A stretch of 64,000 nt of DNA from Candidatus Omnitrophota bacterium (GCA_041651115.1 JBAZJY010000005.1:6405-70404), one strand, 5' to 3'; numbered from the stretch's first letter, positions 6,265-29,321 are shown. Notes: generated by a model not told the origin, from the letters alone. Program-made: numbers and translations.

Positions 6265-6608
6265 AAATAATAAACATCACAAAAGGCACTGTCGTAGCAG
6301 ATAATGCCGTTATCGCTTCTACTTTTTTTAAGCGTCTCAAAGGCCTGCTTGGTAGAAAAAGCATTGAGAAGGGCGAAGCGCTTATAATACAATCCTGCAA
6401 TTCTATCCACAGTTTTTTTATGCGTTTTCCCATTGATGTCCTATTTGTTAATAAGACCGATAAAGTAGTTGCTGTCACAAATTCCTTTGCTCCTTTTCGT
6501 ATCAGCAAGATCTATTTTACCGCTTCTTATGTTATTGAGCTTCCCGCCGGCTCTATAAAAGCTACTTCTACCTCTGTGGGAGATAAGATAGAAATAACTG
6601 CTGGTTAA
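6261..6608 (+). CDS. DUF192 (COG1430) family protein
   Basis: 115 aa. GTG start overlaps the upstream TGA (GTGA), suggesting translational coupling. LKGLLGRK...GEALII..CNSIHSFFMRFPIDVLFV...VIELPAG matches the DUF192 pattern. Confidence 0.55.
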   Translation: MKIINITKGTVVADNAVIASTFFKRLKGLLGRKSIEKGEALIIQSCNSIHSFFMRFPIDVLFVNKTDKVVAVTNSFAPFRISKIYFTASYVIELPAGSIKATSTSVGDKIEITAG

Positions 6609-6725
6609 GGTATTGGGTTAGGGTTAAGATGCCAGTATGGTAGGTGGGTTAAGGTTAAGGATTAATGGCCTAACCTCAACCTCTAAACCATACCGGCTTC
6701 TTGACCGTAACCTTAACCATAGCCT
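6603..6725. repeat. ~120-bp palindromic hairpin repeat (GGTTAAGG / CCGGTATGGTA family), copy 1
   Basis: Left arm ggttaaggtattgggttagggttaag..ccagtatggta..ggttaaggttaagg, and right arm cctaacc..aaaccataccggcttc..ccttaaccatagcc is its reverse complement. The same architecture recurs at 19377, 20634/21199, 21364 and 29199. Confidence 0.8.
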
Positions 6726-6730
6726 ATCTA

Positions 6731-6795
6731 ATGTCCATTGACAATCCCTATCTTTAATGATATTCTGGCTTTATAAATGTCCAATCTGAGGAGAG
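6731..6795 (+). promoter_or_regulatory. pair of AATGTCCA(A/T)T boxes overlapping a candidate sigma70-like promoter and RBS for the 6797 gene
   Basis: Boxes at 6731-6741 (aatgtccattg) and 6775-6787 (aaatgtccaatct). TTGACA (6738-6743), 17 nt, then TATTCT. GAGGAG RBS 6788-6793 before the ATG at 6797. The same box recurs at 21313, 21343, 29131 and 29161. Confidence 0.4.
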
Positions 6796-6796
6796 C

Positions 6797-8323: not shown

Positions 8324-8468
8324 GATTGACGCTTGTTTGTGCGGATGTTATAGTTAGATTGCGATTATAAATATATATATAAGGTAGGATGGTCGGGGGG
8401 GCCGGCCAAGCAAAGCCACGGATGATGTATACTAATTGTCTTTTTATGATTTTGTGGCGTGAAAGCTT

Positions 8469-8500
8469 GCAGCCGGCAGTATTCTGCCGGCTTTTTATTT
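8469..8500 (+). terminator. Rho-independent terminator-like hairpin just upstream of the first pilin gene
   Basis: Perfect 9-bp stem agccggcag / ctgccggct with loop tatt, followed by TTTTTATTT. It lies 10 nt before the pilin RBS (gggag), so it could also act as a 5'-UTR attenuator. Confidence 0.6.
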
Positions 8501-8835: not shown

Positions 8836-9306
8836 ATGATAGATCTGTTAAAGACGACAAGAAAACTAGCCCAGAGCCTTATTGAATACGTGATGATCTT
8901 TGCGATCGTCGCTGCGGCGCTGGGGGTAACTTATAAATATGTTTACCGTTCAATGAACGCGCGTTTGGATGATATACAGGATGTGGTAACTCCTGACCGG
9001 CCTGACGGCGGCAATTGGGATCTGCCCGACGTTGATCCGCCGGATGATCCTGAGCCGCCGAATACGGATTTAGAGAGTTGCCTTGCCGGTAATGACGCGG
9101 AATGTAACCAGCGTTTACAAGAAGGCATAGAATATTGTTGCGTGGAGTGTTGCGGCGCTGTTATGGCTGCTTGTAATGCTAATCCAAGCGACAGCGGTAT
9201 TTGTAACCCGGGTGCTCCCAGTAATGGTTGCCGCTATCCAGAGATTACCAATTGTCAGCAAAGCGGTGAGGCCCAGAGGGATATTTGCTGCGAGAATAAA
9301 TATTAA
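8836..9306 (+). CDS. Flp-type pilin paralog P2 with a 12-Cys C-terminal domain
   Basis: ATG 1 nt after the P1 stop. Leader MIDLLKTTRKLAQSLIEY plus VMIFAIVAAALGV. Pro/Asp-rich linker, then 12 Cys including CC pairs (YCCVECCG, DICCENKY). Confidence 0.6.
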   Translation: MIDLLKTTRKLAQSLIEYVMIFAIVAAALGVTYKYVYRSMNARLDDIQDVVTPDRPDGGNWDLPDVDPPDDPEPPNTDLESCLAGNDAECNQRLQEGIEYCCVECCGAVMAACNANPSDSGICNPGAPSNGCRYPEITNCQQSGEAQRDICCENKY

Positions 9307-9322
9307 CGCGGGTAAAGAAAAG

Positions 9323-9841
9323 ATGAAGAGACCTTACAGATTAGCCCAGAGTCTTATTGAATACGTGATGATCTTTGTGATCGTCGCTGCGGCAGTAGGG
9401 GTAACTTATAAATATATTTATCGCGCAATAAACGCGCGCTTAAAAAACACGCAGGATGAGCTGAACTATAGCCGTTCTGTTGAGGGAGTGGAAGCAGATG
9501 AGTATAATGACGGCAGCGGAGATAAAATTGAGACTTCTGTCGGGAATACTCGTCCGGGCTGTGAGTCTTGCCCGGATAATTGTCGGTCGCGGGTAGTAGC
9601 AACAGGCCGCGGCGGACCTAGTGCGGGTAATTGGGGGGTTGAGTGGTATTGCGCACCGGCTACAGGCGGAAACACAGGTGGAGATACAGGCGGAAACACA
9701 GGTGGAGATACAGGCGGAAACACAGGTGGAGATACCGGCGGTGACACAGGTGGGAATACCGGTGGTTGTCCTGCCGGCTCGCATCGGGTTTGTCATCCAT
9801 GCGGCCGCGGGGATACTTGTTGTAATTGCGTAGGCAATTAA
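9323..9841 (+). CDS. Flp-type pilin paralog P3 with Gly-rich repeats and a 10-Cys C-terminal domain
   Basis: Leader MKRPYRLAQSLIEY plus VMIFVIVAAAVGV. GCESCPDNC motif shared with P1. (GGNTGGDTGG)n repeat encoded by a 30-nt DNA tandem repeat. C-terminal CPAGSHRVCHPCGRGDTCCNC. Confidence 0.6.
   Translation: MKRPYRLAQSLIEYVMIFVIVAAAVGVTYKYIYRAINARLKNTQDELNYSRSVEGVEADEYNDGSGDKIETSVGNTRPGCESCPDNCRSRVVATGRGGPSAGNWGVEWYCAPATGGNTGGDTGGNTGGDTGGNTGGDTGGDTGGNTGGCPAGSHRVCHPCGRGDTCCNCVGN
9655..9765 (+). repeat. 30-nt tandem repeat (about 3.5 copies) inside pilin P3, encoding (GGNTGGDTGG)n
   Basis: acaggcggaaacacaggtggagat acaggcggaaacacaggtggagat acaggcggaaacacaggtggagataccggcggtgacacaggtgggaat. Confidence 0.8.
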
Positions 9842-9897: not shown

Positions 9898-10095
9898 ATG
9901 AGAAAGATGAGAAGGGAAGGACAGAGTATTCTTGAATACACCCTGCTTTTGGGTGCGATAATTGCAGTAATCGTAGCGGTTTTATTAGGTGGCCAAAGCA
10001 GCATGAAAGGTAAGGTAGAGGATACGTACGATGCGTTTGGTAATGCAATAAGCAATACGGCAAACGATGCGGATATCGGCGTGCTTACTCCGTAA
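9898..10095 (+). CDS. canonical short Flp pilin P4 (66 aa)
   Basis: GGAGGTG RBS. MRKMRREGQSILEY with the G-XXXX-EY Flp prepilin motif, then LLLGAIIAVIVAVLLGG. Typical Flp size. Confidence 0.75.
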   Translation: MRKMRREGQSILEYTLLLGAIIAVIVAVLLGGQSSMKGKVEDTYDAFGNAISNTANDADIGVLTP

Positions 10096-10114
10096 CGGAT
10101 AAGGAGGTAGTAAA

Positions 10115-10507
10115 ATGTTTCTAAGGAAGAAAGGACAATCTACTGCCGAATACGCGATTGTCATCGGCTTAGTGATTGCCGTGGCAGCAGGCATACTTCA
10201 GGTTGCCTTAAAAGGCGGCATCCGGCAGAAGAATAAACAGGCTACGGATTATTTGGTTGGTGAGAATGACGGCACAGACGGCGGTGCAGGCGGCTACGCG
10301 GCAATGAACGCCCAGATCGCATTAGGTGATCCTGCTGAACTCTACACCCAGGAAATGCGCGATACTACGGTTTTAGGCGGAGATGCCAACTACGTAGATG
10401 AAAGCGTAATGCTTAAAGGCGGAGCAGAGGAAAGACGGCAGAAGCAGGTTACCGAGACAACAGCTGTCAGCGTAGAGGCTATTGAAGGCGTAACAACGGG
10501 GAATTAA
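10115..10507 (+). CDS. Flp-type pilin paralog P5
   Basis: AAGGAGGT RBS. MFLRKKGQSTAEY plus AIVIGLVIAVAAGILQ. Confidence 0.7.
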   Translation: MFLRKKGQSTAEYAIVIGLVIAVAAGILQVALKGGIRQKNKQATDYLVGENDGTDGGAGGYAAMNAQIALGDPAELYTQEMRDTTVLGGDANYVDESVMLKGGAEERRQKQVTETTAVSVEAIEGVTTGN

Positions 10508-10548
10508 ACCGTACCGTAGATCAAAAAGTCATAGGGAGGTGAGCAATA

Positions 10549-11004
10549 ATGTTAAGGCGCAATAGTGGTCAATCAATAGTGGAGTACGCTATTCTTTTAG
10601 GCGTAATCATCGCGGCCTTATTGATCATGCAGGCATTCATCAAAAGAGGCTATCAGGGCGGCCTGAAAGATTCCGCGGACAAGATGGGCGAGCAGTTTTC
10701 CGCAGGAAATACCACAATCAAACAGGCAAGGACAATGGCAGAGGATCAAACTATCAGGGAAGCAGTGGCAACTGATGATGAAATAGCGCTGTTTACCGGC
10801 GACGTAGGCATAGCAGACGTACCGCGTACGCTTGACGCAGGCGCTTATTCTTATAGCGAGCGCAGCCCGGTGGAAATAGCTTCTACCACGCACGTAGTAA
10901 CTGACAGCGCTGATCAGGAAGCAACAAGAAAAGACGCATACGCTAATGTGCAAGTGACCAACTTTCAGTTTGTCAGTCCTGATAGTGATTTTGAAAGGCC
11001 GTAA
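10549..11004 (+). CDS. Flp-type pilin paralog P6
   Basis: GGGAGGTG RBS. MLRRNSGQSIVEY plus AILLGVIIAALLIMQ. Confidence 0.7.
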   Translation: MLRRNSGQSIVEYAILLGVIIAALLIMQAFIKRGYQGGLKDSADKMGEQFSAGNTTIKQARTMAEDQTIREAVATDDEIALFTGDVGIADVPRTLDAGAYSYSERSPVEIASTTHVVTDSADQEATRKDAYANVQVTNFQFVSPDSDFERP

Positions 11005-11017: not shown

Positions 11018-11209
11018 ATGAAAAGACCCCTTAAGAGAGGACAGAGTATTCTTGAATACGCCCTGCTTTTGGGCGCGATAATCGCAGTGATCGTCGCAGC
11101 TTTACTGGGCAGAGGCGGTATCCAGAGTAAGGTGAGGAATAGTTATGATACTTTCGGAGATGCGATTGAGAGCACGACAACTGATCTAACAAGCAGTGTA
11201 TTTAGATAA
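11018..11209 (+). CDS. canonical short Flp pilin P7 (paralog of P4)
   Basis: AAGGTGG RBS. MKRPLKRGQSILEY plus ALLLGAIIAVIVAALLG. 64 aa. Confidence 0.75.
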   Translation: MKRPLKRGQSILEYALLLGAIIAVIVAALLGRGGIQSKVRNSYDTFGDAIESTTTDLTSSVFR

Positions 11210-11221
11210 GGAGGTAGTAAA

Positions 11222-11581
11222 ATGTTTCTAAGGAAGAAAGGACAATCTACTGCCGAATACGCGATTGTCATCGGCTTAGTGATTGCCGTGGCAGCAGGCA
11301 TACTTCAGGTTGCCTTAAAAGGCGGCATCCGGCAGAAGAATAAAAAAGCAGTGGATTTCTTAGTCGGCGCAGGCAATGACGTTGCTGCCTTTAGCAATGC
11401 CGCGTCCACAGACATCCAACTCTACACCCAGGAAATGCGCGATACTACGGTTTTAGGCGGAGATGCCAACTACGTAGATGAAAGCGTAATGCTTAAAGGC
11501 GGAGCAGAGGAAAGACGGCAGAAGCAGGTTACCGAGACAACAGCTGTCAGCGTAGAAACAATTGACGCTGCAGGACAATAA
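11222..11581 (+). CDS. Flp-type pilin paralog P8 (duplicate of P5)
   Basis: RBS and first ~40 aa identical to P5, and the C-terminal ~45 aa are near-identical. The middle segment has diverged. Confidence 0.7.
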   Translation: MFLRKKGQSTAEYAIVIGLVIAVAAGILQVALKGGIRQKNKKAVDFLVGAGNDVAAFSNAASTDIQLYTQEMRDTTVLGGDANYVDESVMLKGGAEERRQKQVTETTAVSVETIDAAGQ

Positions 11582-11603
11582 AAAATTAGGGAGGTGAGCA
11601 ATA

Positions 11604-12059
11604 ATGTTAAGGCGCAATAGTGGTCAATCAATAGTGGAGTACGCTATTCTTTTAGGCGTAATCATCGCGGCCTTATTGATCATGCAGGCATTCATCAAAA
11701 GAGGCTATCAGGGCGGCCTGAAAGATTCCGCGGACAAGATGGGCGAGCAATATTCTGCCGGCGGAACAACGATCCATAAAAGGAACGCGTTAGGCGCGGG
11801 AGGCCAGCAGATCGTAGAAGAAGTAGCGACAGTAGACGGGTCATCGCCGCTTGCTACTCTTAGCGGGCTTACGCCGGTAGGCACAATCGGCGGCGGAAAG
11901 AGCGCCTATTCTCTGAATACCAGGACAGGCGATACGATGACCTCAACCACAAAAGTGGATACTGACGATGCCCGGCACGAAGCGACAAGAGTGGCGGATT
12001 ACGGCGATGTGTCCAGTTCGGGAGGTAATTTCGCGCTGAGCGATAACGTTGATTTTTAA
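11604..12059 (+). CDS. Flp-type pilin paralog P9 (duplicate of P6)
   Basis: RBS and first ~55 aa identical to P6. The C-terminal half has diverged. Confidence 0.7.
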   Translation: MLRRNSGQSIVEYAILLGVIIAALLIMQAFIKRGYQGGLKDSADKMGEQYSAGGTTIHKRNALGAGGQQIVEEVATVDGSSPLATLSGLTPVGTIGGGKSAYSLNTRTGDTMTSTTKVDTDDARHEATRVADYGDVSSSGGNFALSDNVDF

Positions 12060-12771: not shown

Positions 12772-13584
12772 ATGAAAAAGAATAGGCATAACGATCATAA
12801 AATAATGGGTCAGGCAGCAGTTGAGCTGGCTATTTTCGGCAGTCTGGTGGTATTGGCTTTTTCTGTCCTTATAATGTACGGCCAGCGTTTTGACAACCAG
12901 CAGGAAATAAAAATGGAAGCGTTCCGTCGTGCCCTGCAAAAAGCTTATGAGCGTAATTCAAGCGTAAGTTATACCTATAAAAAAGAAGGCCGTAACTTGA
13001 ACCTTTTCGGCGCGTTTGGCCGCGGCCAGCCCTCTACCGTAGTTTCCACGGCCAGCGTAATGTGGCAAAAAGGCGTATCCGGCGAGCAGGACAGCAGCGG
13101 AAAAGAAAACTTCGCTTATTACCGGATCAACGACTATATGGTAGGCGATGAGATGGGCCTTCCGCGTTATCCTAAACACGTAGAAAGCCTTAGCGGCAAA
13201 AAGGAAAGGGTCCGGGTGCCTGCCAGCGTTTATTCCGAGGAAACGGAAAGAACAGAGATTTACGGTTCCAGCGTAGGCAAGCGCGAGAGCGCTGCGAGCA
13301 TAATTAATACCGCGACTTCCGACTTGACCGATACCGTTTATACAAAATTGCATGTGCGCGTTGACCATTCATACGACGACAATCCTCATGACAATTCAGT
13401 GCCCTTACCGGACTATGCGTATGAAGATCACAGCTATGATAACGAAGGTTCGCAAACAGTCCAATCCGTGCCGGGGGTTTCTCTTGGCGCTTACTCTAAG
13501 GATGCTACCAATCGCGTGAGCTACCGCCAAGATCAGGTTGGCACAACCATTCACCGCGAAAGGACATGGCAAACTGATAATTAA
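12772..13584 (+). CDS. TadE/TadF-like pseudopilin
   Basis: N-terminus GQAAVELAIFGSLVVLAF matches the TadE-like signature (G-x-x-x-VE-F/L-A plus a hydrophobic helix). ~270 aa is typical of TadE/TadF. Confidence 0.55.
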   Translation: MKKNRHNDHKIMGQAAVELAIFGSLVVLAFSVLIMYGQRFDNQQEIKMEAFRRALQKAYERNSSVSYTYKKEGRNLNLFGAFGRGQPSTVVSTASVMWQKGVSGEQDSSGKENFAYYRINDYMVGDEMGLPRYPKHVESLSGKKERVRVPASVYSEETERTEIYGSSVGKRESAASIINTATSDLTDTVYTKLHVRVDHSYDDNPHDNSVPLPDYAYEDHSYDNEGSQTVQSVPGVSLGAYSKDATNRVSYRQDQVGTTIHRERTWQTDN

Positions 13585-19373: not shown

Positions 19374-19376
19374 TAT

Positions 19377-19473
19377 AGGTTAAGGTTAGGGTTATGAAGC
19401 CGGTATGGTAGTTAGGTTAGGGTTAAGTGTCAATAACCTAACCTTAACCACTAAACCATACCGGTATCCTTAC
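19377..19473. repeat. palindromic hairpin repeat, copy 2
   Basis: ggttaaggttagggttatgaagccggtatggtagttaggttagggttaag, loop, then aacctaaccttaaccactaaaccataccggtatccttaccctaacc. Sits between tadC and the lipoprotein gene. Confidence 0.8.
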
Positions 19474-19487
19474 CCTAACCATACACT

Positions 19488-20024: not shown

Positions 20025-20070
20025 GTAGGGACAGAGACTACTTTTCTTCGGTTTTATCAAGTATCCTGCT

Positions 20071-20601
20071 ATGAAGCCTCGATTCTTTCCAAAATTATGT
20101 GTTTTACTGCTGTTGGTGCCTTTTCTATGCAGCTGTGAATTCGGCTGGAAACAGTATATTAACGAAGATAATGATTTTTCTATATTATTGCCTGCTTCAT
20201 GGGAAAAACAAGAAGATGTGTTTGATGCGGCATTGATTGTCTTGGCTCCCGTAAAAGGCAAAAATAAAAACCCGCCGGTCAGGGCGAATATGAATATCAT
20301 CGTCGCTGACTTGCCGGCAAGGGCGGACCTGGATATAGTTTTTGATTTTAACAGAACCGAGCTTTCCAGCAAACTGGCAAGAATAGACGATATCATTGCA
20401 GGCGATATCTATGCCGGTCCATTACTCGGCAGGCAGGTTTCATTTGCGGGCCTGCTTAGCGGATTCCAAGTGAAGATAATCAGCGCCAACTGGGTAAAAG
20501 GCAGGCGCGTTTATACCGTTACCTGCACCTCCGCCCTAAATGAATTCCCCAAATACGAGAAAACATTCAAAAAAATGTTCCGCACCCTGCGTATTAAGTA
20601 G
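20071..20601 (+). CDS. lipoprotein, tandem paralog of 19488-20024
   Basis: Lipobox FLCSC. ILLPASWEKQED...NIIVADLP...AGPLLGRQVSFAG...RVYTVTCT, collinear with the upstream paralog. Confidence 0.55.
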   Translation: MKPRFFPKLCVLLLLVPFLCSCEFGWKQYINEDNDFSILLPASWEKQEDVFDAALIVLAPVKGKNKNPPVRANMNIIVADLPARADLDIVFDFNRTELSSKLARIDDIIAGDIYAGPLLGRQVSFAGLLSGFQVKIISANWVKGRRVYTVTCTSALNEFPKYEKTFKKMFRTLRIK

Positions 20602-20633
20602 TTCTTCCAAGAGTAGTTAAATCTAAGTTGTAA

Positions 20634-21260
20634 TCGTTAGGTTTAGTAATTAGGTTATGGTAAGGAAGCCGGTATGGTAGTTAGGTTATGGTTAAGTATA
20701 AAACCCGGATCGTTTTTTGAATTTAGTCCAAGACATTGACAGCTTATATAATTGCCTGCCCGAGATATCATATGAAGTAATAAGCTCATCGCATAGTTGC
20801 ATATTTATGGCATAGGAATATATATCTTTACACTGATTTAGACTCACTACCGTTTCATTACATTCTCCCATAGCATCATCAAGGTATTTTTGAAACCCCA
20901 TTTTTTGGTGTCTCTTGGCATAGCCTTCAGCTATCAATCTTGGGATAGCCTTACATGATCTCGCCAGTTGGTCTTTTAAATCATATTTTTCGTTATCAGG
21001 TAATCTCGGGATAATTTTTGTCATTACCTCTATGGCAGCTTTATAAGTGTTTTGGTACACATTCAAATCACAAAAACTTCTAATTGGTTTTTTAATTTCC
21101 ATAATTTGGTCCTATTTCTTCAGCTAGACTTAGAATACGATCGCCTTCTGTAATAATAGACGAATAAACAGAATAAATCTAACTCAAAAACATGTCATTT
21201 TAACCTAACCTTAACCCTTTAAACTATACTGGTTTCTTTACCATAACCTTAAACATAACC
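20634..21260. mobile_element. IR-flanked cassette: arms of the hairpin-repeat family enclosing a four-helix-bundle gene
   Basis: Left arm 20634-20696 (..ggttatggtaaggaagccggtatggtagttaggttatggttaag). Right arm 21199-21260 (aacctaaccttaacc..aaactatactgg..ccataaccttaaacataacc) is its reverse complement. In copies 1, 2 and 5 the arms abut across a short loop. Here they are ~500 bp apart with a gene between. Confidence 0.5.
20692..21102 (-). CDS. four-helix-bundle protein (23S rRNA intervening-sequence / Avd-like family)
   Basis: SFCDLNVYQNTYKAAIEVMTKIIPRLPDNEKYDLKDQLARSCKAIPRLIAEGYAKRHQKMGFQKYLDDAMGECNETVVSL matches the conserved F-x-DL-x-VWQ / IAEG signature of this family. Only convincing minus-strand gene in the window. 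Confidence 0.7.
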   Translation of the reverse strand: MEIKKPIRSFCDLNVYQNTYKAAIEVMTKIIPRLPDNEKYDLKDQLARSCKAIPRLIAEGYAKRHQKMGFQKYLDDAMGECNETVVSLNQCKDIYSYAINMQLCDELITSYDISGRQLYKLSMSWTKFKKRSGFYT

Positions 21261-21281
21261 TGGGGAGTGTTATCAAGTACT

Positions 21282-21355
21282 TCAGTTTGGACATTAAAAA
21301 TAAACGTTTTTTAAATGTCCAATCTATTTTTAATCGTTAAATAATGTCCAAACTG
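21282..21355 (+). promoter_or_regulatory. three AATGTCCAA(T/A)CT boxes (one inverted, two direct) upstream of giant gene 1
   Basis: cagtttggacatt at 21283-21295 is the reverse complement of aatgtccaaactg at 21343-21355. A direct aaatgtccaatct sits at 21313-21325. The direct copies are 30 bp apart, as at 29131/29161. Confidence 0.45.
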
Positions 21356-21363
21356 GAATAAAT

Positions 21364-21437
21364 TGGTTAAGTCAGCTTATAACCTAACCTTAACCGCTAA
21401 ACTATACCGGTATCCTTGCCCTAACCTTAACCATAAC
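21364..21437. repeat. hairpin-repeat family, partial copy (short left arm ttggttaagtca plus full right arm)
   Basis: ttggttaagtcagcttataacctaaccttaaccgctaaactataccggtatccttgccctaaccttaaccataacc. Confidence 0.6.
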
Positions 21438-21561
21438 CAGGCTTATATACATAACTGAAGAAAGCGTTATCAATATCCGTATCTTTATACCTTGATAGAT
21501 ATATGCTTTGTGCTATACTTTTTGTGCTAATTATTTAAATATAAAAGTAATATAAATATAT

Positions 21562-24500
21562 ATGATGAATCCAACCTCATTACTTGAAAGAAGAAAAATG
21601 ACAAAGGCCGGATTTTTTACTTTCGGGTTTCTTAGAAAACAAAAATGGCTTAGCGTGATCCTGGCGCTGGCCTTTTTGCTTAATACTATTTCACCTGCTT
21701 TTGCGCGCGAGGGAAATTCCGGCAGACGGACTTCTCTTGAAATGTACGGCCTCGGCGCATTAGCCGGCTCCGCTTTAGGCGCCTCTATCCTTATCGGTTA
21801 TGAAACCGGCCAATGGTGGGGCGTTGCCGCTGCCGCAGCCGCAAATATGGCAAGCGACCTTACCGGCCTTGTGATGTATTACTATTTTTATGAGAGCTAC
21901 GGGGAAACCGCAACAGTATTCGGAAAAGAACTTAAATTCGGCAATGTAGAAATTAGCAAAGGAATGCTTTATTCAATGTATGCCGGAACGATCACCGGCG
22001 CGCTTGTTGGTATTGTGGGAGGCCTGGCCTCTGGTGCTTCCAGCGGCGCAAGTTCAAGCCTTGAAAGCGGCGCAAGTTCAGGCATTGAGAGTGCTGCTGC
22101 TAGCGCCGGGGAAGGTGCTGTGTCAGGCGCGGCTACCGGTGCTGCGTCAGGCGCGACATCTGGTGCTGTAGCAGGCGCAGCCAATAGCGTGATTACAGCT
22201 ATTGTGAATGCCGCAAAAGCCCTCTGGCAAGCTATCGTGAATGCAGCCAAAGCCATTTGGACAGCGCTTAAAAACGCTTGGCAAGCTATCGTGAAATTTT
22301 TTGATCGTCCTCTTAAGGAAATATTAAAGTCAGTCGGAAAAGCCCTTTGGGAGAACGTATTAAAGCCGATTTTAGAGCCTATCTGGAAGAATCTCATTAA
22401 GCCTATCTGGAACTTCATTACGCACCCCATTAGGACAATAAAGGATTTTTTTGCTAGAATCGCGAAAACTGCGGCAGACAACAATATTAATTGGTTAAGA
22501 GCAGCAATAAGAGTTGTGTATAAGCTTGATAAGCTTAAACCCGGCAGCGTTGCCAATCCTTATATCCGTTACGGAGCAGAACGCTCTTTTGGAGCTGCGT
22601 TTGCGCATTTAGTAGGCGACCTGGTTATTAATACGGCAAAGCTGTTTTTCAGAGAAACAATAAAGCAGAACCTTGAGAAAGGATTTGAGATCACGATTGG
22701 TAAAGGTAAGAATAAGAAAACGCTCATTGCAATTGACGAGCAAGATGAAACTATCGCCGAGATCGCTGCCGATATCGCAACCATATATTTTTCAGCATGT
22801 ATCACTCCGACAGTAAGGATACTTTTGGGCAACTTAATGCACGTGTATGGAGGCAAGGGCAAGTTTGTTCTTGATAACCAGGGCGGATACTTAAGTAAGG
22901 AAGGGGAAGGCTTTATTGATGAGGGCGTAACCTATGAAATTGACGCAGTAGAGATGAATTCTCAGGAAATCAACAGGCGCCTGGAAGCCAAGCAAATTAA
23001 GGGTGACGCAATGGTGAAAGTTACCCGTGACGGAAAAACCGAAGAGATAAAGGCTGAAGCGGTAGCCAATATGTTAAACGGCAAGAATTACACCGTTACC
23101 CTGCAAGCCGACGTAACTTTAAACGGCGAAACCGTGAAAGCCGGCACAAAGATAGCCGTTAATGCGACAGAGTTTACTAACCTTTGGCAGCAGGAAGGCG
23201 TGATCAACAAATCCGGTTCCGTAGATGTCACTAATACAGATGGAGTAACGCAGCAGATCAGCGCGGAGGCGGCATACGCAGGCGCAGTTAATATTTTGAG
23301 CGCCAGTTATACTGCCGGGATTACCATAGCCGCCCACGACTATTTCCAGATGCGGGAAAGTGAAACGATCAAAGAAGGCAGCACGCCTGTGCGCGTTACT
23401 TCTGCCGACAAAAAAAATCAGGTTGATACTACTGCCAAAGAATTAGACGGCGTTTTTAACGATACCTATGTGCAGCTGGAAATGGCCCGGCGGCTGGAAA
23501 ATAAAATCATTACTTTTCAAGACGCTGCCACCGGCGAACTGCATGAAATGAAAATGAGCGAGGTTGCCCGGGAAATAGCCCCGAATAAAGACGGCACAGT
23601 AGGCGTACAAAACGATAACGGCACTTATAGCGTAGTAATAAACGGCAAGGAAGTTATAGTTGACGCTGCCACATCTGCTCAACTGCACAGCAATCTTGTT
23701 GCCTACGCTACTATCATGGCAAGCAGTGCCCATCAGACCGCGCTCGCCTTAACCGGTGGACTCTTAAACGACATTCACGGCAATCCCGTAAGCAGTAAAC
23801 CGCTTAAGGCAGGCTTGCAGACCATGCGCAGCATCGGCCTGCATCCTCTTGTCGGCGCGGGAGTAAAAATACTTGCTTTGAAATTGATGAAGTACCGCAC
23901 GCATTACGGCGATGAAAGCGGCCGCGTTGCGGAAAACGCGAAAAAAATGGCAATTGCTGATTTCTTCGGCAATCTTGCTTCGTCAGCAGTGGCCAATTCC
24001 TCGCGTTTCAATACTTGGTATGCCGGCACAGATGAAAATCCATATGTGCAAAGGGGCGACTCCGGTGAATATTTAGGCAGGGAATATGCCCAGCGAATGG
24101 GCAAAGAATTTGTTACACAAACCGCCCTATTGGCCAATGAATTAGCTTGGGCAAATTATTGCAAGAAAAAAGACATTACTCCCGATGCGTTAGATGAAGT
24201 AAGGCATCTGGCAGCAGGTTCGCTTGTTAGCGGCTTGGTAGATGCAATTTACCGCCGCGATCCCGGCACCGTAGAGAAAAAAGACCAGGTGCTGGTAGAA
24301 ACCAGCGGTATGGCATCTGGCAACGGAGAGCTTATGTTTGTAGACCGCGACAGCCTTACCGAGAGCACATATGACAAAGATACCTTTTTATTCAAGGTTA
24401 ACGGCGAGGACCTAAGAGGTAAAATCAGAACACTTGATAATAAAGAAAAAGTATTCCTTAATGAAGATGACGTTCTCTTTGTCGGCGCCAAGGCGCCCGA

Positions 24501-27500
24501 CGACAACAAGAAGTGGTCTGCGGTAACATGGCAGACGAATAACGCTTCTGTAAAAACAGGCGGGCAGGTATCTTATAATGTTACATACGACGTGTCTTCC
24601 CGGCTTAATGATCCTCAATTCCAGAGCAGGCAGAATCTGACCGCTGGCAAGTTTGTAAAGAGCGTGGCGCAGGATTTCAATAACCATTTTATACAGGCGG
24701 CCGCGCGCAGCAGCCTGTATTTATCTCCGATGTTTACGCCCGGCACAGGCCCGGCAGGATTTTTGGCGCAGCAGCAGATGCAGGACCAGTGGATCCAGCA
24801 CATCCAAGGCATGGCGCAAGGCACTGGCCCGGGAATGCTGATGGCCAACCGCCTTGGCGGCAACATGCGCTATTATGCCAATATGAACGTTGCCGATTCG
24901 CTCGGCGCGGCAATCACCAATCGCTTTATGCGCCAGGAGCTGCGTTCTTATGCTACCTTCATGACTACGCAAGAAAAACTCCAGTATTTGCAGGTTACAG
25001 AAGAGAAAAATCTGAAACGGAAAGTAGAATTATTGGGTAGCCTGCGGGCTTTTAATAAAGAATATGGCGGTGACATTAATAAATTGAATGCAGACATAGA
25101 GCAGGCGAATATAGATCTGGCAACAGCGGAACAGGCCGGGCGCGTTGATGAGGTCAATACCATGCGCAAAGCGCTGGAGACGATGTACGGCATGGTAATA
25201 GCTGCAGATGAAGTTTTAAAGAAAGCTTACAGCCTGCAAATCGTCCGCGCTAACGAAGTTTATAGCCTTCCCGCAGAGGCGCAGTCAAGAATCTTTAATG
25301 ATTTAATGCCGGAAGTAATAGACGGCCTGCAAGCGGACGTAGATGCCTCTGCTTATAAGATTGGGGCCATGGAAAGGGCTAAGGGTTCGCTGGGCATACT
25401 CTCCAGCGTGCCTATCCTCGGCGCAATGATCCAGTCAGCCGTGCTTTCTAACCTGGCGACATCAACCGGCCAGGCGCAAGGCATAAATGATTTTATTATC
25501 GGCGGTATAGTTGATTATAATGTTGACCGCACTTTTGATATCTATGCGCCGATGAGCGGCTATACGGCAGGGGCGCTGGAAAGCACGGTAGATAACAGCG
25601 CGAAAACAACGCAGATGAGTGAAAAAGATAAACAGGCTTTCCGTTCGCTTTTAAAAGATCCCGAGCTCAGGAAGCGCAGCGAGCTTAGAAGCAATTATTC
25701 AATGTCGGTTGCCGGGGTTTATCAGGGCAGTGAAAGCTACGCCAATACTCCGCTTTTGAATGCAAGCGGCATCTCGCAGGAGGTAAGGTCAACAAGAATG
25801 GAGCTTAGGGAAGCCGAGACCGGCGGTAAGGCGCTGGTAGTAACAGATTCTACAAAAATAGATGCCATTAACGTGATTAAAGAAATGAGAAAAAATAACC
25901 CGAATGTTGAGGCATTTACTTATATACCGGAAGATAAGGATAAAACACCGGAGCAGGTTGAAACTGCGCTATATGAATTAAAGACCGGCAGGGTGTTGTT
26001 CTCCGATTATGGCCTGACCAGTCGCACCACAGTTGATCAGTTCGGCCGCGCCGTAGAAACCAGGCATTATGCCCCCGACTTTGTTTTTAGCGATATCGGG
26101 AGTGAATGGCAAACCGGCATAGAGCAGGATGTGATCACCCGGCATTATTACGGGCCGTTTGGCCACGCGGTTTCCATTACTACCGACTATACGCAGATAG
26201 GGGTTCCTGATGCGGATAACTGGCCGGGAGCAAAAGATTGGACTATCGGCATGGGCAAGGTATGGAATGATCTGGCCGCGGAATTCAAGGTTGTCGGCGT
26301 AACGCCCGAGCAGCTTGCCGGAAAATTAGGCATTGAACTCACTGGCCAGGAAAGCGCAGAAGAGCTGCAGGTTAAATTCACCAGCTTTCTGCAGGAAAAG
26401 CTCAAAGAAGGGCCTGATGCGATTGAGAAAATTGATGCAGATATTAAAACTTTTGCCGGTAGCTTAAATGTTGAGCCGAAGAATATCGGCGGCGATTTCA
26501 GCAATTATATTCCTAAGATCAAAAAATATGTTTATGCTACAGATCCCAAGACAGGAGAATACCGTACTGATAAATCCGGCCGCTTAATCCCTATCGGCAG
26601 CGTGCTTAACGCAAAGGCGGCGCAAACTCAGCGTTTCCTTGCTGCAGCGCAAAATTTAAGGGAGGGCAAACCTATAGAATATTCATACGCAGGTAAGGAG
26701 GATTATCAGGTAACCGCCCTCAAGGTTCCTCAAGAAGAAATTGATAAGAGCAGGGCTCTTGTGACCCAGGACATGCTTGAAGAATTTGCCGGCTTTGCAA
26801 CAGACGTATACGGTAAAAAGGTCAGGGCAAAGGATATCAACATGAATACGCCCTGGGGCGGCATCCTTGCGTATATGGCGGTTAACCCGCAGCCGGATGG
26901 CCGTAAATGGTCAGAGCTGACAACTGATGAAAAGCAGGACATCTTTGCGGGTGTAACTGCATGGAGGCTTCTAACCTACGGATTATACGCAGAGGATCCG
27001 AACGTAAAGCAAACCATTCCTAATAATCAAAGCACTTTGACCCTTTTCTTAGGCAGCGGCGCTGATCAGATCCGCGGCGCCAACTATTTATACGTGCCTG
27101 CGATCGCCGGGCAGAAAATGGAACCTTTGAAAACTACCCTAACCGGGCCCGAAGGCTATTATCAGCCGGTTTCTGTCGGCCCGAATTACAGCTACGATAT
27201 CAGTATTTATTCTACCGGAGAGGGCAAGACCCCGTATTCCGGGCCAAGCCACAGGGCCAGCGTCAGCGATATTAATTCCGGCCCCGCGCTCAATGCCGCT
27301 GCGCAGTACACGCTTCCGACAGATGCCGTTGAGCGGCAATTGCAGCAATTGGTTTATAACTTTGCAGCTACCGATTTTAAAGGCGCTGACCAGCGCGCAG
27401 AATTGATCGGCTTTATGAAAAATGAACTGGGTATAGACGAAGAAGATGCTATTGCAAAAGTAGATAGGTTAAATTCAAGAGAATATGGTAGAGAATTTTT

Positions 27501-29109
27501 GGAAGGCATACAGGAAAAAGTAGATGAATCCAGGATCAACCTTGATAAGATCACGCAGGCGCCGCTTACGCTTACTGCTACTACTGCGCAAACAGAAACT
27601 CCAAAACTAAAAACTCAGGCTCTTCCCAATATGTCTTTTCCGGATTTAGATAGAACTAAATGGGCAATGCAAAGGCTTGAGGGCCAGGATTTAGAAGTAT
27701 ATACCGCGGTGCAGAATAAACAACAGGAATTAAATAGCAATTTAAACCGCGACCTGTCTAATGTCAAACAAATGCAGTTCTTTGAATATAAGGATATTGG
27801 CGGCAGGACACTGATGCTTCCGACATGGGGCATGAGTATGGGTTCTGTTTTGCAGACGCGGGATGATGCTATGGCAGCTGCCATAAATCAGGAAGAATTA
27901 AGGTTCAGCAAGCTCATGGCCTATAATTATGACAGGCAAGGCATAGAAACTTCCATTGACAAAGGCTACAAGGAAGCGTTGGTTAGCGGCAATGATTTCC
28001 TTACTAACATGTTCAAAGAAACCAAGACCCTTCCCATAAACGGCCATAGCTTAGTAATGGAGCCTAATAATAATGGCATGTTGGGAGCTTTTTACGATCG
28101 TTCAACTACGGTTTATGTGCCGGGAGAATATGGCAGCTATGACGCCGCACTTCCCGAGGGTACCTACAAGTATGACGGAAGGGGTTCTGCGGATGTTATT
28201 CAGAGAAGCCAATTAAGGCTAAAAAATTCAGAAGAAGCAAAATTGGTCCCGTTAGACGGCAGGTCTACTTCTACGAACACGGCCGCGGCGCCGGTAATTA
28301 ATAATCCGCCGGTACAAACAGCGCCTGCGCCGGTTACAGGCCCTGACCTGCAGTCGCAGGAAGCAGAGCTTAAACCGCTTAAGCCTATCGTAAAACCTAT
28401 ACCAAACAATATTGATCAATCAATCCCGCTGTCCCGGGCATATCCGCAGCAGCAACCTGTAAGTGTTAATACAACCGTGCCTGAATTGACCGACGAGCCG
28501 GCAGTTGAAACAATAAAACAGGAAACTGTAACCGTACCCCAATATGACCTAAAAGATTACATCCAGCTTGAAACAGCTGTTTTGAATATGGCCCCTACCC
28601 TAGGCGTAGGCGACATCGGCTTCTTATCCCAATGCGCTCAATATGGAACAATCGATAGCGATAATATCAATAAGATCGTGCCTTTGTTTGCAGAAGCAAG
28701 AAAAAATGGCGCGATTGATGATATGGGGTTAGTATACCTAGAGCAGTTTATGTCTATTAAAAAGATACCAATAGTACCAGAGGGCTCTGTTCGAGAAGGT
28801 GACGTTACAGCACTTGCTTTGGCAGAAGAAGAAGCTCTCAAGCAAGGAAATGTAGTAGAGATCCCTCCTATCATAACTTCGGAAAATTCCGAGGCATTTT
28901 TTACCACAATAGGCAATCAAGATTTTGTCAATAGATTAGGGAGGAATAACGAAGCTATATATGGATTCTACTCGGCTTTGAATAAACTATCGGATAGCGG
29001 TAAGGTATCTCCAGACAATCTGTTGAAAGTCACGGATTATTTACGCGATCATCCAGACGAGATTGAGTATTCCCGCAGAACCGGTGAGCTAAGAGGTTTT
29101 GAGAAATAA
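21562..29109 (+). CDS. giant secreted/surface protein (2,515 aa), function unknown
   Basis: Uninterrupted ORF. N-terminal signal-like segment WLSVILALAFLLNTISPAFA. Gly/Ala/Ser-rich low-complexity block. Trp-containing amphipathic 11-mer repeats (AIVNAAKALWQAIVNAAKAIWTALKNAWQAIV...KPIWKNLIKPIWNF). Pro-rich segment near 28280-28400. No recognised catalytic motif. Confidence 0.7.
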   Translation: MMNPTSLLERRKMTKAGFFTFGFLRKQKWLSVILALAFLLNTISPAFAREGNSGRRTSLEMYGLGALAGSALGASILIGYETGQWWGVAAAAAANMASDLTGLVMYYYFYESYGETATVFGKELKFGNVEISKGMLYSMYAGTITGALVGIVGGLASGASSGASSSLESGASSGIESAAASAGEGAVSGAATGAASGATSGAVAGAANSVITAIVNAAKALWQAIVNAAKAIWTALKNAWQAIVKFFDRPLKEILKSVGKALWENVLKPILEPIWKNLIKPIWNFITHPIRTIKDFFARIAKTAADNNINWLRAAIRVVYKLDKLKPGSVANPYIRYGAERSFGAAFAHLVGDLVINTAKLFFRETIKQNLEKGFEITIGKGKNKKTLIAIDEQDETIAEIAADIATIYFSACITPTVRILLGNLMHVYGGKGKFVLDNQGGYLSKEGEGFIDEGVTYEIDAVEMNSQEINRRLEAKQIKGDAMVKVTRDGKTEEIKAEAVANMLNGKNYTVTLQADVTLNGETVKAGTKIAVNATEFTNLWQQEGVINKSGSVDVTNTDGVTQQISAEAAYAGAVNILSASYTAGITIAAHDYFQMRESETIKEGSTPVRVTSADKKNQVDTTAKELDGVFNDTYVQLEMARRLENKIITFQDAATGELHEMKMSEVAREIAPNKDGTVGVQNDNGTYSVVINGKEVIVDAATSAQLHSNLVAYATIMASSAHQTALALTGGLLNDIHGNPVSSKPLKAGLQTMRSIGLHPLVGAGVKILALKLMKYRTHYGDESGRVAENAKKMAIADFFGNLASSAVANSSRFNTWYAGTDENPYVQRGDSGEYLGREYAQRMGKEFVTQTALLANELAWANYCKKKDITPDALDEVRHLAAGSLVSGLVDAIYRRDPGTVEKKDQVLVETSGMASGNGELMFVDRDSLTESTYDKDTFLFKVNGEDLRGKIRTLDNKEKVFLNEDDVLFVGAKAPDDNKKWSAVTWQTNNASVKTGGQVSYNVTYDVSSRLNDPQFQSRQNLTAGKFVKSVAQDFNNHFIQAAARSSLYLSPMFTPGTGPAGFLAQQQMQDQWIQHIQGMAQGTGPGMLMANRLGGNMRYYANMNVADSLGAAITNRFMRQELRSYATFMTTQEKLQYLQVTEEKNLKRKVELLGSLRAFNKEYGGDINKLNADIEQANIDLATAEQAGRVDEVNTMRKALETMYGMVIAADEVLKKAYSLQIVRANEVYSLPAEAQSRIFNDLMPEVIDGLQADVDASAYKIGAMERAKGSLGILSSVPILGAMIQSAVLSNLATSTGQAQGINDFIIGGIVDYNVDRTFDIYAPMSGYTAGALESTVDNSAKTTQMSEKDKQAFRSLLKDPELRKRSELRSNYSMSVAGVYQGSESYANTPLLNASGISQEVRSTRMELREAETGGKALVVTDSTKIDAINVIKEMRKNNPNVEAFTYIPEDKDKTPEQVETALYELKTGRVLFSDYGLTSRTTVDQFGRAVETRHYAPDFVFSDIGSEWQTGIEQDVITRHYYGPFGHAVSITTDYTQIGVPDADNWPGAKDWTIGMGKVWNDLAAEFKVVGVTPEQLAGKLGIELTGQESAEELQVKFTSFLQEKLKEGPDAIEKIDADIKTFAGSLNVEPKNIGGDFSNYIPKIKKYVYATDPKTGEYRTDKSGRLIPIGSVLNAKAAQTQRFLAAAQNLREGKPIEYSYAGKEDYQVTALKVPQEEIDKSRALVTQDMLEEFAGFATDVYGKKVRAKDINMNTPWGGILAYMAVNPQPDGRKWSELTTDEKQDIFAGVTAWRLLTYGLYAEDPNVKQTIPNNQSTLTLFLGSGADQIRGANYLYVPAIAGQKMEPLKTTLTGPEGYYQPVSVGPNYSYDISIYSTGEGKTPYSGPSHRASVSDINSGPALNAAAQYTLPTDAVERQLQQLVYNFAATDFKGADQRAELIGFMKNELGIDEEDAIAKVDRLNSREYGREFLEGIQEKVDESRINLDKITQAPLTLTATTAQTETPKLKTQALPNMSFPDLDRTKWAMQRLEGQDLEVYTAVQNKQQELNSNLNRDLSNVKQMQFFEYKDIGGRTLMLPTWGMSMGSVLQTRDDAMAAAINQEELRFSKLMAYNYDRQGIETSIDKGYKEALVSGNDFLTNMFKETKTLPINGHSLVMEPNNNGMLGAFYDRSTTVYVPGEYGSYDAALPEGTYKYDGRGSADVIQRSQLRLKNSEEAKLVPLDGRSTSTNTAAAPVINNPPVQTAPAPVTGPDLQSQEAELKPLKPIVKPIPNNIDQSIPLSRAYPQQQPVSVNTTVPELTDEPAVETIKQETVTVPQYDLKDYIQLETAVLNMAPTLGVGDIGFLSQCAQYGTIDSDNINKIVPLFAEARKNGAIDDMGLVYLEQFMSIKKIPIVPEGSVREGDVTALALAEEEALKQGNVVEIPPIITSENSEAFFTTIGNQDFVNRLGRNNEAIYGFYSALNKLSDSGKVSPDNLLKVTDYLRDHPDEIEYSRRTGELRGFEK

Positions 29110-29130
29110 AACTAATAAAAATATTAAATT

Positions 29131-29172
29131 AATGTCCAATCTGAAATAAAATCGCTTATAAATGTCCAATCT
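29131..29172 (+). promoter_or_regulatory. two direct AATGTCCAATCT boxes, 30 bp apart, between the giant genes
   Basis: aatgtccaatctg at 29131 and aatgtccaatcta at 29161, followed by ttggttaagtca and hairpin repeat copy 5. Confidence 0.45.
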
Positions 29173-29198
29173 AAAATAAGAGTCTTAATTCCAATATT

Positions 29199-29321
29199 GG
29201 TTAAGTCATTAGGTTAAGGTTAAGAGGCCAGTATGGTAAATAGGTTATGGTTAAGTGCCAAATAACCTAACCTTAACCCCTAAACCATACCGGCTTCCTG
29301 ACCCTAACCTTAACCTAATTA
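29199..29321. repeat. palindromic hairpin repeat, copy 5
   Basis: ggttaagtcattaggttaaggttaagaggccagtatggtaaataggttatggttaag, loop, then aacctaaccttaacccctaaaccataccggcttcctgaccctaaccttaacc. Confidence 0.8.

Follow-up and report, generated by a model that had tools for sequence, protein, structure and literature searches.

Palindromic hairpins between protein genes of a Candidatus Omnitrophota bacterium as probable gene-less relatives of an intervening-sequence-type cassette

The window analyzed here, a 64,000-nucleotide stretch of a Candidatus Omnitrophota contig (GCA_041651115.1 JBAZJY010000005.1:6405-70404), carries five copies (A to E) of a palindromic repeat within 23 kb, all of them between protein-coding genes. 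The initial annotation had described six repeat stretches, built from GGTTA(A/G)GG units around a CCGGTATGGTA core and placed after DUF192, TadC, the lipoproteins, and giant gene 1. That description and placement are correct and all six stretches are present, with the end of copy B corrected from 19473 to about 19483. The features are as follows.

6603-6725, no strand assigned: copy A, gene-less hairpin (-61.6 kcal/mol, z -6.25; covariance-model match of 106.8 bits, E 8e-26, with the 112-nt-scale model)
19377-19483, no strand assigned: copy B, gene-less hairpin (-57.4 kcal/mol, z -8.2; 101.9 bits; orthologous sites empty)
20634-20696, minus strand: copy C, arm on the downstream side of the ORF (3′ when read along the ORF strand), paired with 21199-21260 in the MFE and centroid folds
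20692-21102, minus strand: copy C cargo, gene for a 136-aa four-helix-bundle protein of the 23S_rRNA_IVP / TIGR02436 family (PF05635, E 1.8e-17; TIGR02436, E 2.3e-15)
21103-21198, minus strand: copy C leader, the 96 nt that separate the 5′ arm from the ATG, as compared with other loci
21199-21260, minus strand: copy C, arm on the upstream side of the ORF (5′ when read along the ORF strand), paired with 20634-20696
21364-21437, no strand assigned: copy D, 5′-truncated gene-less copy (loop and right arm, with the left arm lost), by hairpin alignment
29199-29321, no strand assigned: copy E, gene-less hairpin (-52 / -63.3 kcal/mol; 112.4 bits, E 2e-27)

Copies A, B, and E are the three full hairpins of the window, and each is an inverted repeat over its whole length according to both folding and repeat finding, which recovered families D2/D4/D6 and I1-I8. 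Whichever strand is folded, each gives a single long hairpin, with energies of -52 to -63 kcal/mol and z of -6.3 to -8.4 that none of 200 shuffles equaled; the long stem-loop proposed earlier is borne out. With at most one mismatch, AACCATACCGG occurs six times against 0.82 expected (six was reached in 0 of 100 shuffles), while CCTAACCTTAACC, allowing two mismatches, occurs 23 times against 1.14 expected, with 21 of these matches inside the six stretches. The window copies are 71-84% identical to one another, and the complementarity within a copy (72-79%) is not above this between-copy identity, giving no sign of concerted evolution of the two arms. A covariance-model search returned no further copies elsewhere in the window; regex matches at 46424-46474 and in locus L055 were false positives. 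In Rfam, no family matched the hairpins at its gathering score, and permissive E-values yielded generic miRNA-precursor-like matches far below threshold.

The hairpins fit closely against their neighbors. The DUF192 stop codon (6606-6608) lies inside the first GGTTAAGG unit of copy A, and copy B makes up the entire 114-nt spacer from the TadC stop (19373) to the lipoprotein start (19488). Copy E follows the stop of giant gene 1 (29109) and precedes the conserved promoter region of giant gene 2, and the truncated copy D, likewise intergenic, occupies the equivalent position before the promoter of giant gene 1. Both D and E are upstream of promoters and may be outside operon transcripts. A AATGTCCAATCT motif that adjoins the hairpins was considered as part of the repeat and rejected, because it is conserved together with the promoters where orthologous loci have no hairpin.

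Copy D is a partial copy, as had been stated, whereas the two other stretches given as partial, 20634-20696 and 21199-21260, are the arms of a single hairpin, copy C. A minus-strand ORF of 136 aa separates the arms precisely where the apical loop would be, and its stop codon (20692-20694) is inside the 20634-20696 arm. When all 646 nt of the element are folded, the two arms pair and enclose the ORF. The encoded protein is predicted to form four helices (pLDDT 84.7), and its best PDB matches are 2GSC and 2RLD, with Avd of the diversity-generating retroelements (DGRs) also matched. It has every residue that is invariant among 39 close homologues and has no match in PADLOC or PHROGs. No transposase domain occurs in it, and the gene-bearing form encodes only this four-helix-bundle protein. 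Neither a relative of the protein nor a two-core hairpin was found in viral contigs, and phages are therefore not an evident vector.

The leader of copy C contains a promoter-like ATGACA-17-TATTCT and an AGGA nine nucleotides 5′ of the ATG. This leader is atypical, in that the arm adjoins the ATG directly in other loci. Since the gene is also antisense to the host genes of the window, copy C is not a typical read-through cassette.

The arrangement of a hairpin around the gene recurs at close homologues (62-83% identical) in 80 genomes from more than 15 phyla. Hosts include Omnitrophota, Planctomycetota, Nitrospirota, Desulfobacterota, Gammaproteobacteria, and Bacteroidales, as well as CPR, WOR-3, Elusimicrobia, and Chloroflexota, and the gene looks horizontally spread and not vertically inherited. 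In this arrangement, the arm adjoining the ATG is G-rich, and the stop codon marks the start of a C-rich arm. A conserved core (GAAGCCNGTAT/ATACNGGCWTC) lies between hexamer repeats in the strictly scorable loci, of which there are 35, and these share the order hexamers, GAAGCC-N-GTAT, hexamers, ATG ... TAA, ATAC-N′-GGCWTC, hexamers. Loci L002, L003, and L007 hold a homologous gene between the same type of arms as copy C, with compensatory arm changes from GCCGGTAT/ATACCGGC to GCCCGTAT/AAACGGGC. Pairing between the flanks is far above shuffled controls in most of the 80 loci (about 55, judged by reading), and 75-nt flanks reach -40 kcal/mol or lower in 40 of 79 loci. As a potential RNase III substrate, the stem folds to at least 40 bp and is mostly Watson-Crick paired. 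Sense and antisense arm pairing show no asymmetry (-47.4 versus -46.6 kcal/mol, p = 0.67) and G-U use is likewise negative; given this symmetry, selection on RNA specifically is unsupported, and the palindrome could equally serve as DNA. The core is conserved in sequence and not merely in pairing, which points to protein recognition more than to generic cleavage by RNase III.

These cassettes are solitary in operons and sit in tight spacers, with gaps around them that are about arm-sized. In 71 of 78 loci the upstream neighbor runs in the same direction as the cassette gene, and in 59 of 75 both neighbors do. The flanks are protein ORFs, including those of ATP-synthase, purine, and glutamate-synthase operons in other phyla; conserved rRNA motifs were present in 0 of 94 loci, and Rfam detected no rRNA in the window.

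Gene-less hairpins also occur outside the window. A covariance model identified about 36 of them in about 30 homologue loci, 30 of the 36 being intergenic with a tight fit between one stop and the next start, and the same model identified none in 35 kb of orthologous Tad loci. Among 16 gene-less hairpins taken from 14 loci, the share of cells that pair is 84.6%, against 25-45% with a slid partner. Both sides have changed in ten pairs, and the covariation score of 0.161 (0.100 in shuffles) was reached by 0 of 500 shuffles. Gene-bearing and gene-less copies have a within-genome "dialect" in common: arms that enclose an ORF are closest to the gene-less hairpin at the same locus, which ranked 1-3 among 23 in 10 of the 11 non-overlapping cases. 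In L014, L059, L070, L032, and L088, the gene is flanked by repeats or the order is hairpin-gene-hairpin. A strict 25-nt right-arm pattern had 0 matches in 185,579 GTDB species genomes, the source genome not being among the representatives, and was found in only five contigs of JGI metagenomes, with one match on a 414-kb contig. From such counts, copy number looks low.

Comparison with orthologous Tad loci bears on how the hairpins came to be where they are. Loci L095, L096, and L097 have the same gene order without these hairpins, and TadC-to-lipoprotein spacers in orthologues measure 23, 24, and 5 nt, as opposed to 114 nt in the window. Because the hairpins are absent from these loci, at least copy B is most simply read as an insertion. 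Because gene order is unchanged in them, the suggestion that the repeats are recombination sites that shuffle modules is unsupported. The filled and the empty orthologous sites have diverged too far for alignment, duplex folding places the boundaries too far out, and no target-site duplication could be defined; together with the 71-84% identity among copies, this leaves recent mobility unsupported. A search for a cassette-free site in the purine operon led instead to related loci in which another gene lies downstream and the palindromes are unrelated. The proposal of MITE-like mobile repeats holds to the extent that the hairpins are gene-less relatives of a gene-bearing element and that copy B is missing from three orthologous loci. 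It is limited in that the parent encodes a four-helix-bundle protein and not a transposase, that the strict motif is rare, and that a target-site duplication could not be delimited.

A role as terminators had been suggested as well, and is unsupported because no U-tract follows the hairpins. A terminator scan of 19000-21700 called none of the hairpins, its sole call within a repeat being a minor 10-bp stem in copy D on the minus strand, and T-runs are absent directly after the stems of A, B, and E. Of the RNA-level roles, that of a processing site appears the most plausible, by analogy with the RNase III excision of 23S rRNA intervening sequences (PMC4990558).

We consider it probable, at roughly 0.6, that the repeats are gene-less derivatives of a selfish cassette of the intervening-sequence type that resides in operon spacers. 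Copy C would then be the gene-bearing unit, A, B, and E the same hairpin without the gene, and D a truncated hairpin; we infer that the gene-bearing form gave rise to the gene-less one. In other genomes, where it sits in short spacers of co-directional gene strings, the unit would be transcribed with the host operon, and the arms on either side are then predicted to form a long duplex stem in the RNA. When transcribed, this stem is probably processed by RNase III, by analogy with those rRNA intervening sequences that contain a gene of this protein family. The cut would release the cassette RNA and separate the neighboring cistrons; without the gene, the hairpin would serve simply as a site of processing or stability. 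The protein presumably recognizes the conserved core or the hexamer arms.

It is conceivable, if unlikely, that the hairpins are instead resident "punctuation" of operon spacers, and that a separate selfish four-helix-bundle gene inserts in their loops as it does in those of 23S rRNA helices, A, B, and E being unoccupied host hairpins. Related Omnitrophota do carry unrelated palindromes of other short units at equivalent places, namely after DUF192 (L095), after the lipoprotein gene (L097), and after a LOG-like gene (L098, L100). The arms differ strongly even between close protein homologues, for example GGAAGTA units at L022/L024 as opposed to GTGAGTG at L052, and the strict core patterns are passed by only 35 of the 80 loci. 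However, the GAAGCC-N-GTAT / ATAC-N-GGCWTC core and GGTWAS hexamers accompany the gene across unrelated phyla, which would be unexpected were the arms host-specific, and a hairpin that is missing from three orthologous loci, as B is, is not conserved punctuation. Still less likely are DNA elements of the REPIN/MITE type moved in trans by an unlinked transposase, such as a RAYT or an IS200/IS605-type Y1 enzyme, with the four-helix-bundle gene as a passenger or favored neighbor. Imperfect palindromes of about 100-125 nt that are strictly intergenic, the equal stability of both strands, and the resemblance of the repeat-flanked gene layouts listed above to REPIN-flanked RAYT genes would all suit such elements. 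Against them, no transposase or recombinase domain was found in the scanned ORFs of the window or in the called genes of the loci with annotation, the gene adjoining the repeats is always PF05635 with arms touching its start and stop codons, and the copy number looks low.

Regulators evolved by the host for the Tad pilus and giant genes, whether terminators, attenuators, or mRNA stabilizers, are a very improbable explanation. The hairpins do lie at gene-cluster boundaries next to conserved promoters and operator-like motifs, but they are not terminators by U-tract or scan, the orthologous Tad loci keep promoters and AATGTCCAATCT motifs in their absence, and the same hairpin type stands in metabolic operons of other phyla; the comparison with orthologous loci thus largely refutes this explanation. 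That the repeats resemble one another by chance, or stem from one local duplication limited to this contig, has next to no probability and is already refuted. The clustering of all copies within 23 kb might recall it, as might the homologous positions in two paralogous upstream regions of D and E, either of which may have come from segmental duplication. Yet shuffle controls exclude chance, and the repeat is neither local nor single: the strict pattern is in five JGI contigs, the broader family in about 30 other loci, and the family as a whole in many unrelated genomes.

Several known systems resemble these elements in part. As in the ORF-bearing 23S rRNA intervening sequences (IVSs) of the Leptospira, Coxiella burnetii, and Xanthomonas/Brucella type, terminal inverted repeats form a long stem, with an S23p / PF05635 ORF in the loop of copy C and of the 80 homologous loci. 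The Coxiella IVS has a 28-bp stem that RNase III cuts in the middle, an S23p ORF in its loop, and short tandem repeats 5′ of the ATG (PMC4990558). Such tandem repeats are shared with the cassettes, as is a sporadic distribution resembling horizontal transfer (PMC4990558), and gene-less forms exist in both (A, B, D, and E here; Salmonella-type IVSs). Unlike IVSs, which occupy 23S rRNA helix 9, 25, or 45, the present elements lie in spacers between protein-coding genes, with longer stems (about 45-55 bp versus 28 bp) and a conserved core with hexamer arms, and RNase III excision would apply to them by analogy. Their hairpins share terminal inverted repeats with MITEs, but a MITE is a deletion derivative of a transposase element, and the gene-bearing form here is without a transposase.

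The comparison with REPIN-RAYT systems is based on REP doublets with an associated gene, as reportedly described by Bertels and Rainey in 2011. Common to both are intergenic imperfect palindromes of about 100-120 nt, an associated gene directly between repeats, and one within-genome "dialect" for gene flanks and dispersed copies. The gene here is a four-helix bundle (PF05635 / TIGR02436) with no HUH/Y1 domain, and in contrast to RAYT systems the hairpins appear few and the gene horizontally spread. De Gregorio and colleagues are said to have described miniature palindromic insertions in transcription units, where the transcribed hairpins undergo RNase III cleavage or affect the stability of the mRNA. 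Copies A and B might work in this way, as co-transcribed miniature palindromes like Correia/NEMIS and ERIC, to which they have no sequence relation; those elements have defined terminal repeats, a TA duplication, hundreds of copies, and no PF05635 gene-bearing form. Integron cassettes are similar in having a promoter-less small ORF tightly bounded by an imperfect palindrome (attC), inserted in sense and expressed from an upstream host promoter. In contrast to them, the present cassettes are solitary in ordinary operons and form no arrays, no integrase domain was found among the scanned window ORFs, and the palindrome encloses the ORF instead of following it. Avd, which in DGRs is part of a ribonucleoprotein with structured RNA, has the same fold and a distant family relation (8UBE, 4DWL). 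Sequence identity to it is about 10%, and the scanned window ORFs contain no reverse transcriptase or template/variable repeats.

A broader and tentative proposal, which we hold to be well short of probable, is that PF05635 genes and their enclosing hairpins form one unrecognized class of mobile promoter-less cassettes, in rRNA helices and operon spacers of most bacterial phyla. The pentameric four-helix-bundle protein would propagate or maintain the element by acting on the conserved core and hexamer stem that belong to it, in RNA or DNA form, possibly via an RNA intermediate as for Avd in DGRs, and gene-less hairpins would be non-autonomous offspring.

To our knowledge, IVSs and the S23p protein have had no known function or spread mechanism since about 1990, and the idea of IVS mobility has so far rested on rRNA cases only. 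The element described here is a cassette of the IVS kind already known from rRNA, found between ordinary protein genes in many bacterial phyla. If the hairpin-plus-gene unit lives in operon spacers of many phyla, together with a conserved core and derivatives that lack the gene, the IVS question becomes testable outside the ribosome, and one could ask what the core binds, whether the unit is removed from mRNA by RNase III, and whether filled and empty sites segregate in populations. Earlier work took the gene neighborhoods of four helix bundle genes as functional association (PMC3936711); if the present reading is true, "four helix bundle protein" genes inside cas, ATP-synthase, and purine operons may be selfish insertions. 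Since the hairpins provide stop codons and occupy whole spacers, gene calls and operon models are affected in Omnitrophota and other uncultured phyla.

All six stretches of palindromic repeat claimed in the initial annotation were found in the window, each in the intergenic placement that had been proposed, and they correspond to copies A to E as follows.

6603-6725: copy A, a complete imperfect palindrome that contains the stop codon of the DUF192 gene
19377-19483: copy B, a complete imperfect palindrome that occupies the entire TadC-to-lipoprotein spacer
20634-20696 and 21199-21260: copy C, left and right arms, with an ORF between them (20692-21102, minus strand)
21364-21437: copy D, of which only the loop and right arm remain
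29199-29321: copy E, a complete imperfect palindrome

As was also anticipated, copies A, B and E, which carry no gene, each form a single long hairpin whichever strand is folded (-52 to -63 kcal/mol, z -6.3 to -8.4; 0 of 200 shuffles as stable). The conserved hairpin core is GAAGCCNGTAT, and matches to AACCATACCGG with at most one mismatch (6 versus 0.82 expected) and to CCTAACCTTAACC with at most two mismatches (23 versus 1.14 expected) lie almost all within the six stretches. No Rfam family was matched by any copy. The stretches 20634-20696 and 21199-21260 had been taken for separate partial copies; alignment of the copies shows them to be the two arms of copy C, parted exactly at the apical loop. 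The window copies are mutually 71-84% identical, which suggests that they are old, and they show no sign of concerted evolution of the two arms. The G-rich arms (6616-6628, 19384-19396 and others) read GGTTAGGGTTA, the vertebrate telomere repeat hexamer; we know of no functional link between the two.

The ORF of copy C is intact and encodes a 136-aa protein that matches Pfam PF05635 ('23S rRNA-intervening sequence protein', E 1.8e-17) as well as NCBIfam TIGR02436 ('four helix bundle protein'). Structure prediction gives a four-helix bundle (pLDDT 84.7), to which the closest solved structures are XCC0516 (2GSC) and BT_0352 (2RLD), with the Avd subunit of diversity-generating retroelements as a more remote match; defence and phage protein libraries gave no match. 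The stop codon of the ORF lies inside one arm, and the minimum-energy and centroid structures of the whole 646-nt element both have the arms paired, with the ORF enclosed. Copy C is antisense to the host genes, unlike the typical cassette (hairpin arms plus the enclosed PF05635 gene); its extra leader of 96 nt holds a promoter-like site, and an AGGA precedes the ATG.

Homologues of this protein number in the thousands, the best 120 being 69-100% identical and the named ones coming from several phyla, and an alignment of 39 homologues contains 38 invariant positions, including AIPRLIAEGYAKR-Q--GFQ-Y. Three homologous loci were inspected first: in Omnitrophota, an ATP-synthase region and a purine operon, and in WOR-3, a glutamate-synthase cluster. 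In each, arms of the same kind directly flank the gene, with compensatory differences (GCCGGTAT/ATACCGGC versus GCCCGTAT/AAACGGGC). Scanning one genome per species with the protein as guide yielded 218 loci, of which the best 80 (62-83% identity to the window protein) span Omnitrophota, Planctomycetota (Scalindua, Brocadia), Nitrospirota, Desulfobacterota, Gammaproteobacteria, Clostridia, Bacteroidales, many CPR lineages, WOR-3, Cloacimonadota, Elusimicrobia, Chloroflexota and Auribacterota. In about 55 of these best 80 loci, the ~80-nt flanks upstream of the start codon and downstream of the stop codon pair far above shuffled controls, and the 75-nt flanks form a duplex of -40 kcal/mol or lower in 40 of 79. 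Read on the ORF strand, the arms have a common anatomy, whose strict core patterns are passed by 35 loci.

5' side: two or three GGTWAS hexamers; GA(A/G)-GCC-N-GT(A/T)T-(C/G)G; two more hexamers; 4-8 nt; ATG and ORF
3' side: stop codon opening the other arm (TAACC...); C(G/C)A(A/T)AC-N'-GGC(A/T)TC; hexamers

Hairpin and gene are one conserved unit. Since conserved rRNA motifs were found in 0 of 94 loci, the cassettes lie outside rRNA genes; the family was not found on viral contigs. Some genomes hold two cassettes, near each other or on different contigs (loci L048, 1544-1963 and 2938-3357; L081, 746-1105 and 2998-3390; CP070660.1, L055 and L089; CAYSQE01, L027 and L044).

Gene-less hairpins also occur elsewhere. 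A strict 25-nt pattern matched five JGI contigs, three or four of which have gene-less hairpins and one a gene-bearing copy arranged as in the window. When pairs were counted in an alignment of sixteen gene-less hairpins from 14 loci, 84.6% of cells were paired versus 25-45% with the partner slid, ten pairs had changed on both sides, and the covariation score was 0.161 versus 0.100 in shuffles (matched by 0 of 500). Since large parts of the core are invariant among these hairpins, conservation extends beyond pairing to the sequence itself. With a covariance model made from the alignment, about 36 distinct hairpins lacking a gene were detected in about 30 of the homologue loci, and none in 35 kb of orthologous Tad loci. 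Thirty of the 36 are intergenic, usually starting -10 to +20 nt from the upstream stop and ending 5-30 nt before the next start, and the order hairpin-gene-hairpin is seen in L014, L032, L059, L070 and L088. In 10 of the 11 loci whose gene-less hairpin lies clear of the gene flanks, the hairpin of the same locus ranks 1-3 of 23 as a match to the arms around the gene, which indicates that gene-bearing and gene-less copies share a within-genome dialect.

The window, from a contig of a Candidatus Omnitrophota MAG, has as its host locus a Tad pilus operon with RcpC/CpaB, a secretin with a C-terminal TonB_C domain (2488-4101), an N-terminal ParA/MinD-like domain fused to a CpaF-type ATPase (4111-6264), DUF192, pilin-like genes, a TadE/G-like gene, TadB and TadC. 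It is followed by two paralogous PsbP-like lipoprotein genes (19488-20024 and 20071-20601, ends 73% identical; one in orthologous loci) and two giant ORFs, 21562-29109 (2,515 aa, no Pfam match) and 29528-64000 (11,798 aa in the gene call of the source contig). The scanned window ORFs contain no transposase, integrase or reverse transcriptase domain. A tRNA gene stands at the window start (179-253; Rfam RF00005, 60.3 bits), and several repeats lie within or across genes: a 12-nt unit (ACAGGCGGAAAC / ACAGGTGGAGAT; 9637-9780) repeated nine times in register within ORF 9176-9841, which would encode a repetitive four-residue stretch in a pilin-region protein; a ~1.1-kb tandem duplication (9918-10719 versus 11038-11774, 88-98% identical) spanning several small pilin-like genes; and three direct repeats of 168 nt (53363-53760, 68-88% identical) in the second giant gene.

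Three orthologous Tad loci (TadC 67-80% identical) keep the gene order unchanged; the hairpins do not mark synteny breaks. The TadC-to-lipoprotein spacer is 114 nt in the window, all of it hairpin B, versus 23, 24 and about 5 nt in the orthologues, so by parsimony copy B appears to be an insertion. The motif AATGTCCAATCT(GAGG) and the promoters that adjoin A, D and E are kept in the orthologous loci without hairpins, and thus belong to the host rather than to the repeat.

6776-6787, 21284-21295 (minus strand), 21314-21325, 21343-21354, 29131-29142, 29161-29172: AATGTCCAATCT(GAGG) in the window
L095 about 1100 and 13073; L096 11460 and 11483: AATGTCCAATCT(GAGG) in orthologous Tad loci
21455-21530 and 29355-29420; L095 about 13290-13360; L096 about 11680-11750: conserved promoter-like block GAAGAAAGCGCTACC ... 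CTTGAYA ... TATGTTATACTT, upstream of the giant genes here and in the orthologues

AATGTCCAATCT(GAGG), which recurs ahead of the pilin cluster and of each giant gene, is probably a host operator or leader element. The regions upstream of the two giant genes are paralogous, and D and E occupy matching positions in them; one or the other may therefore stem from segmental duplication.

Because they share the anatomy of 23S rRNA intervening sequences that bear an ORF, these elements are best read as hairpin cassettes of the intervening-sequence type that live in operon spacers and have gene-less derivatives. In 71 of 78 loci the cassette points the same way as the gene upstream of it, and in 59 of 75 it runs with the genes on both sides; the gaps between its gene and the neighbours are about one arm length. 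Since the cassette lacks space for its own promoter, expression is most simply explained by read-through from the host operon. Once transcribed, the arms would pair into a long double-stranded stem, which RNase III, by analogy, probably cuts; the cut would free the cassette RNA and part the flanking cistrons, and the protein may recognise the conserved core or the hexamer arms. The gene-less copies, which probably derive from gene-bearing ones, would serve as bare processing or stability sites.

Several observations argue against a purely RNA-level reading. Arm pairing is equally strong on both strands, the core is conserved in sequence, and D and E are located upstream of promoters; the old, diverged copies show no sign of concerted arm evolution. 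No target duplication could be defined, and the copy number looks low in strict-pattern searches of genomes and JGI metagenomes. Furthermore, long palindromes unrelated to the family, with other short tandem units (GGGGACAC, CCAATAA, TTCGAAT), are found in related Omnitrophota loci at places equivalent to the window hairpins (L095 981-1050; L097 about 2400-2480 and 1819-1841; L098 4660-4800, the same as L099 2935-3054; L100 2650-2770). These also keep alive an account that we consider unlikely, in which long hairpins serve as resident punctuation, with the gene homing into the loops.

The intervening-sequence-type cassette can be set beside known systems. The Coxiella intervening sequence has a 28-bp terminal stem around an S23p ORF, a mid-stem RNase III cut and short tandem repeats before the ATG, and intervening sequences have long been suspected of mobility and horizontal transfer (PMC4990558). 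The cassette would work alike, the RNase III step being by analogy, but it does not sit in an rRNA helix, which defines that family. Its layout and within-genome dialect recall REPIN-RAYT systems, but its gene is not a Y1 transposase. It is not an integron cassette, there being no array and no integrase domain in the scanned window ORFs. The initial annotation, whose observation of the repeats is confirmed and extended here, was right in part in its interpretation: the hairpins are not intrinsic terminators in a terminator scan, and the family is not a canonical MITE, as the gene-bearing parent encodes no transposase and a target duplication could not be defined, although gene-less relatives of a gene-bearing element partly fit the proposed MITE-like character.

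The searchable open-access literature holds nothing on hairpin-enclosed PF05635 genes outside rRNA; in CPR bacteria, PF05635 ORFs also occur in rRNA insertions (PMC11270868). An earlier survey described 18 PF05635 genes inside cas operons and took this as a functional link (PMC3936711). Insertion of a cassette of this type may offer an alternative reading of those genes.
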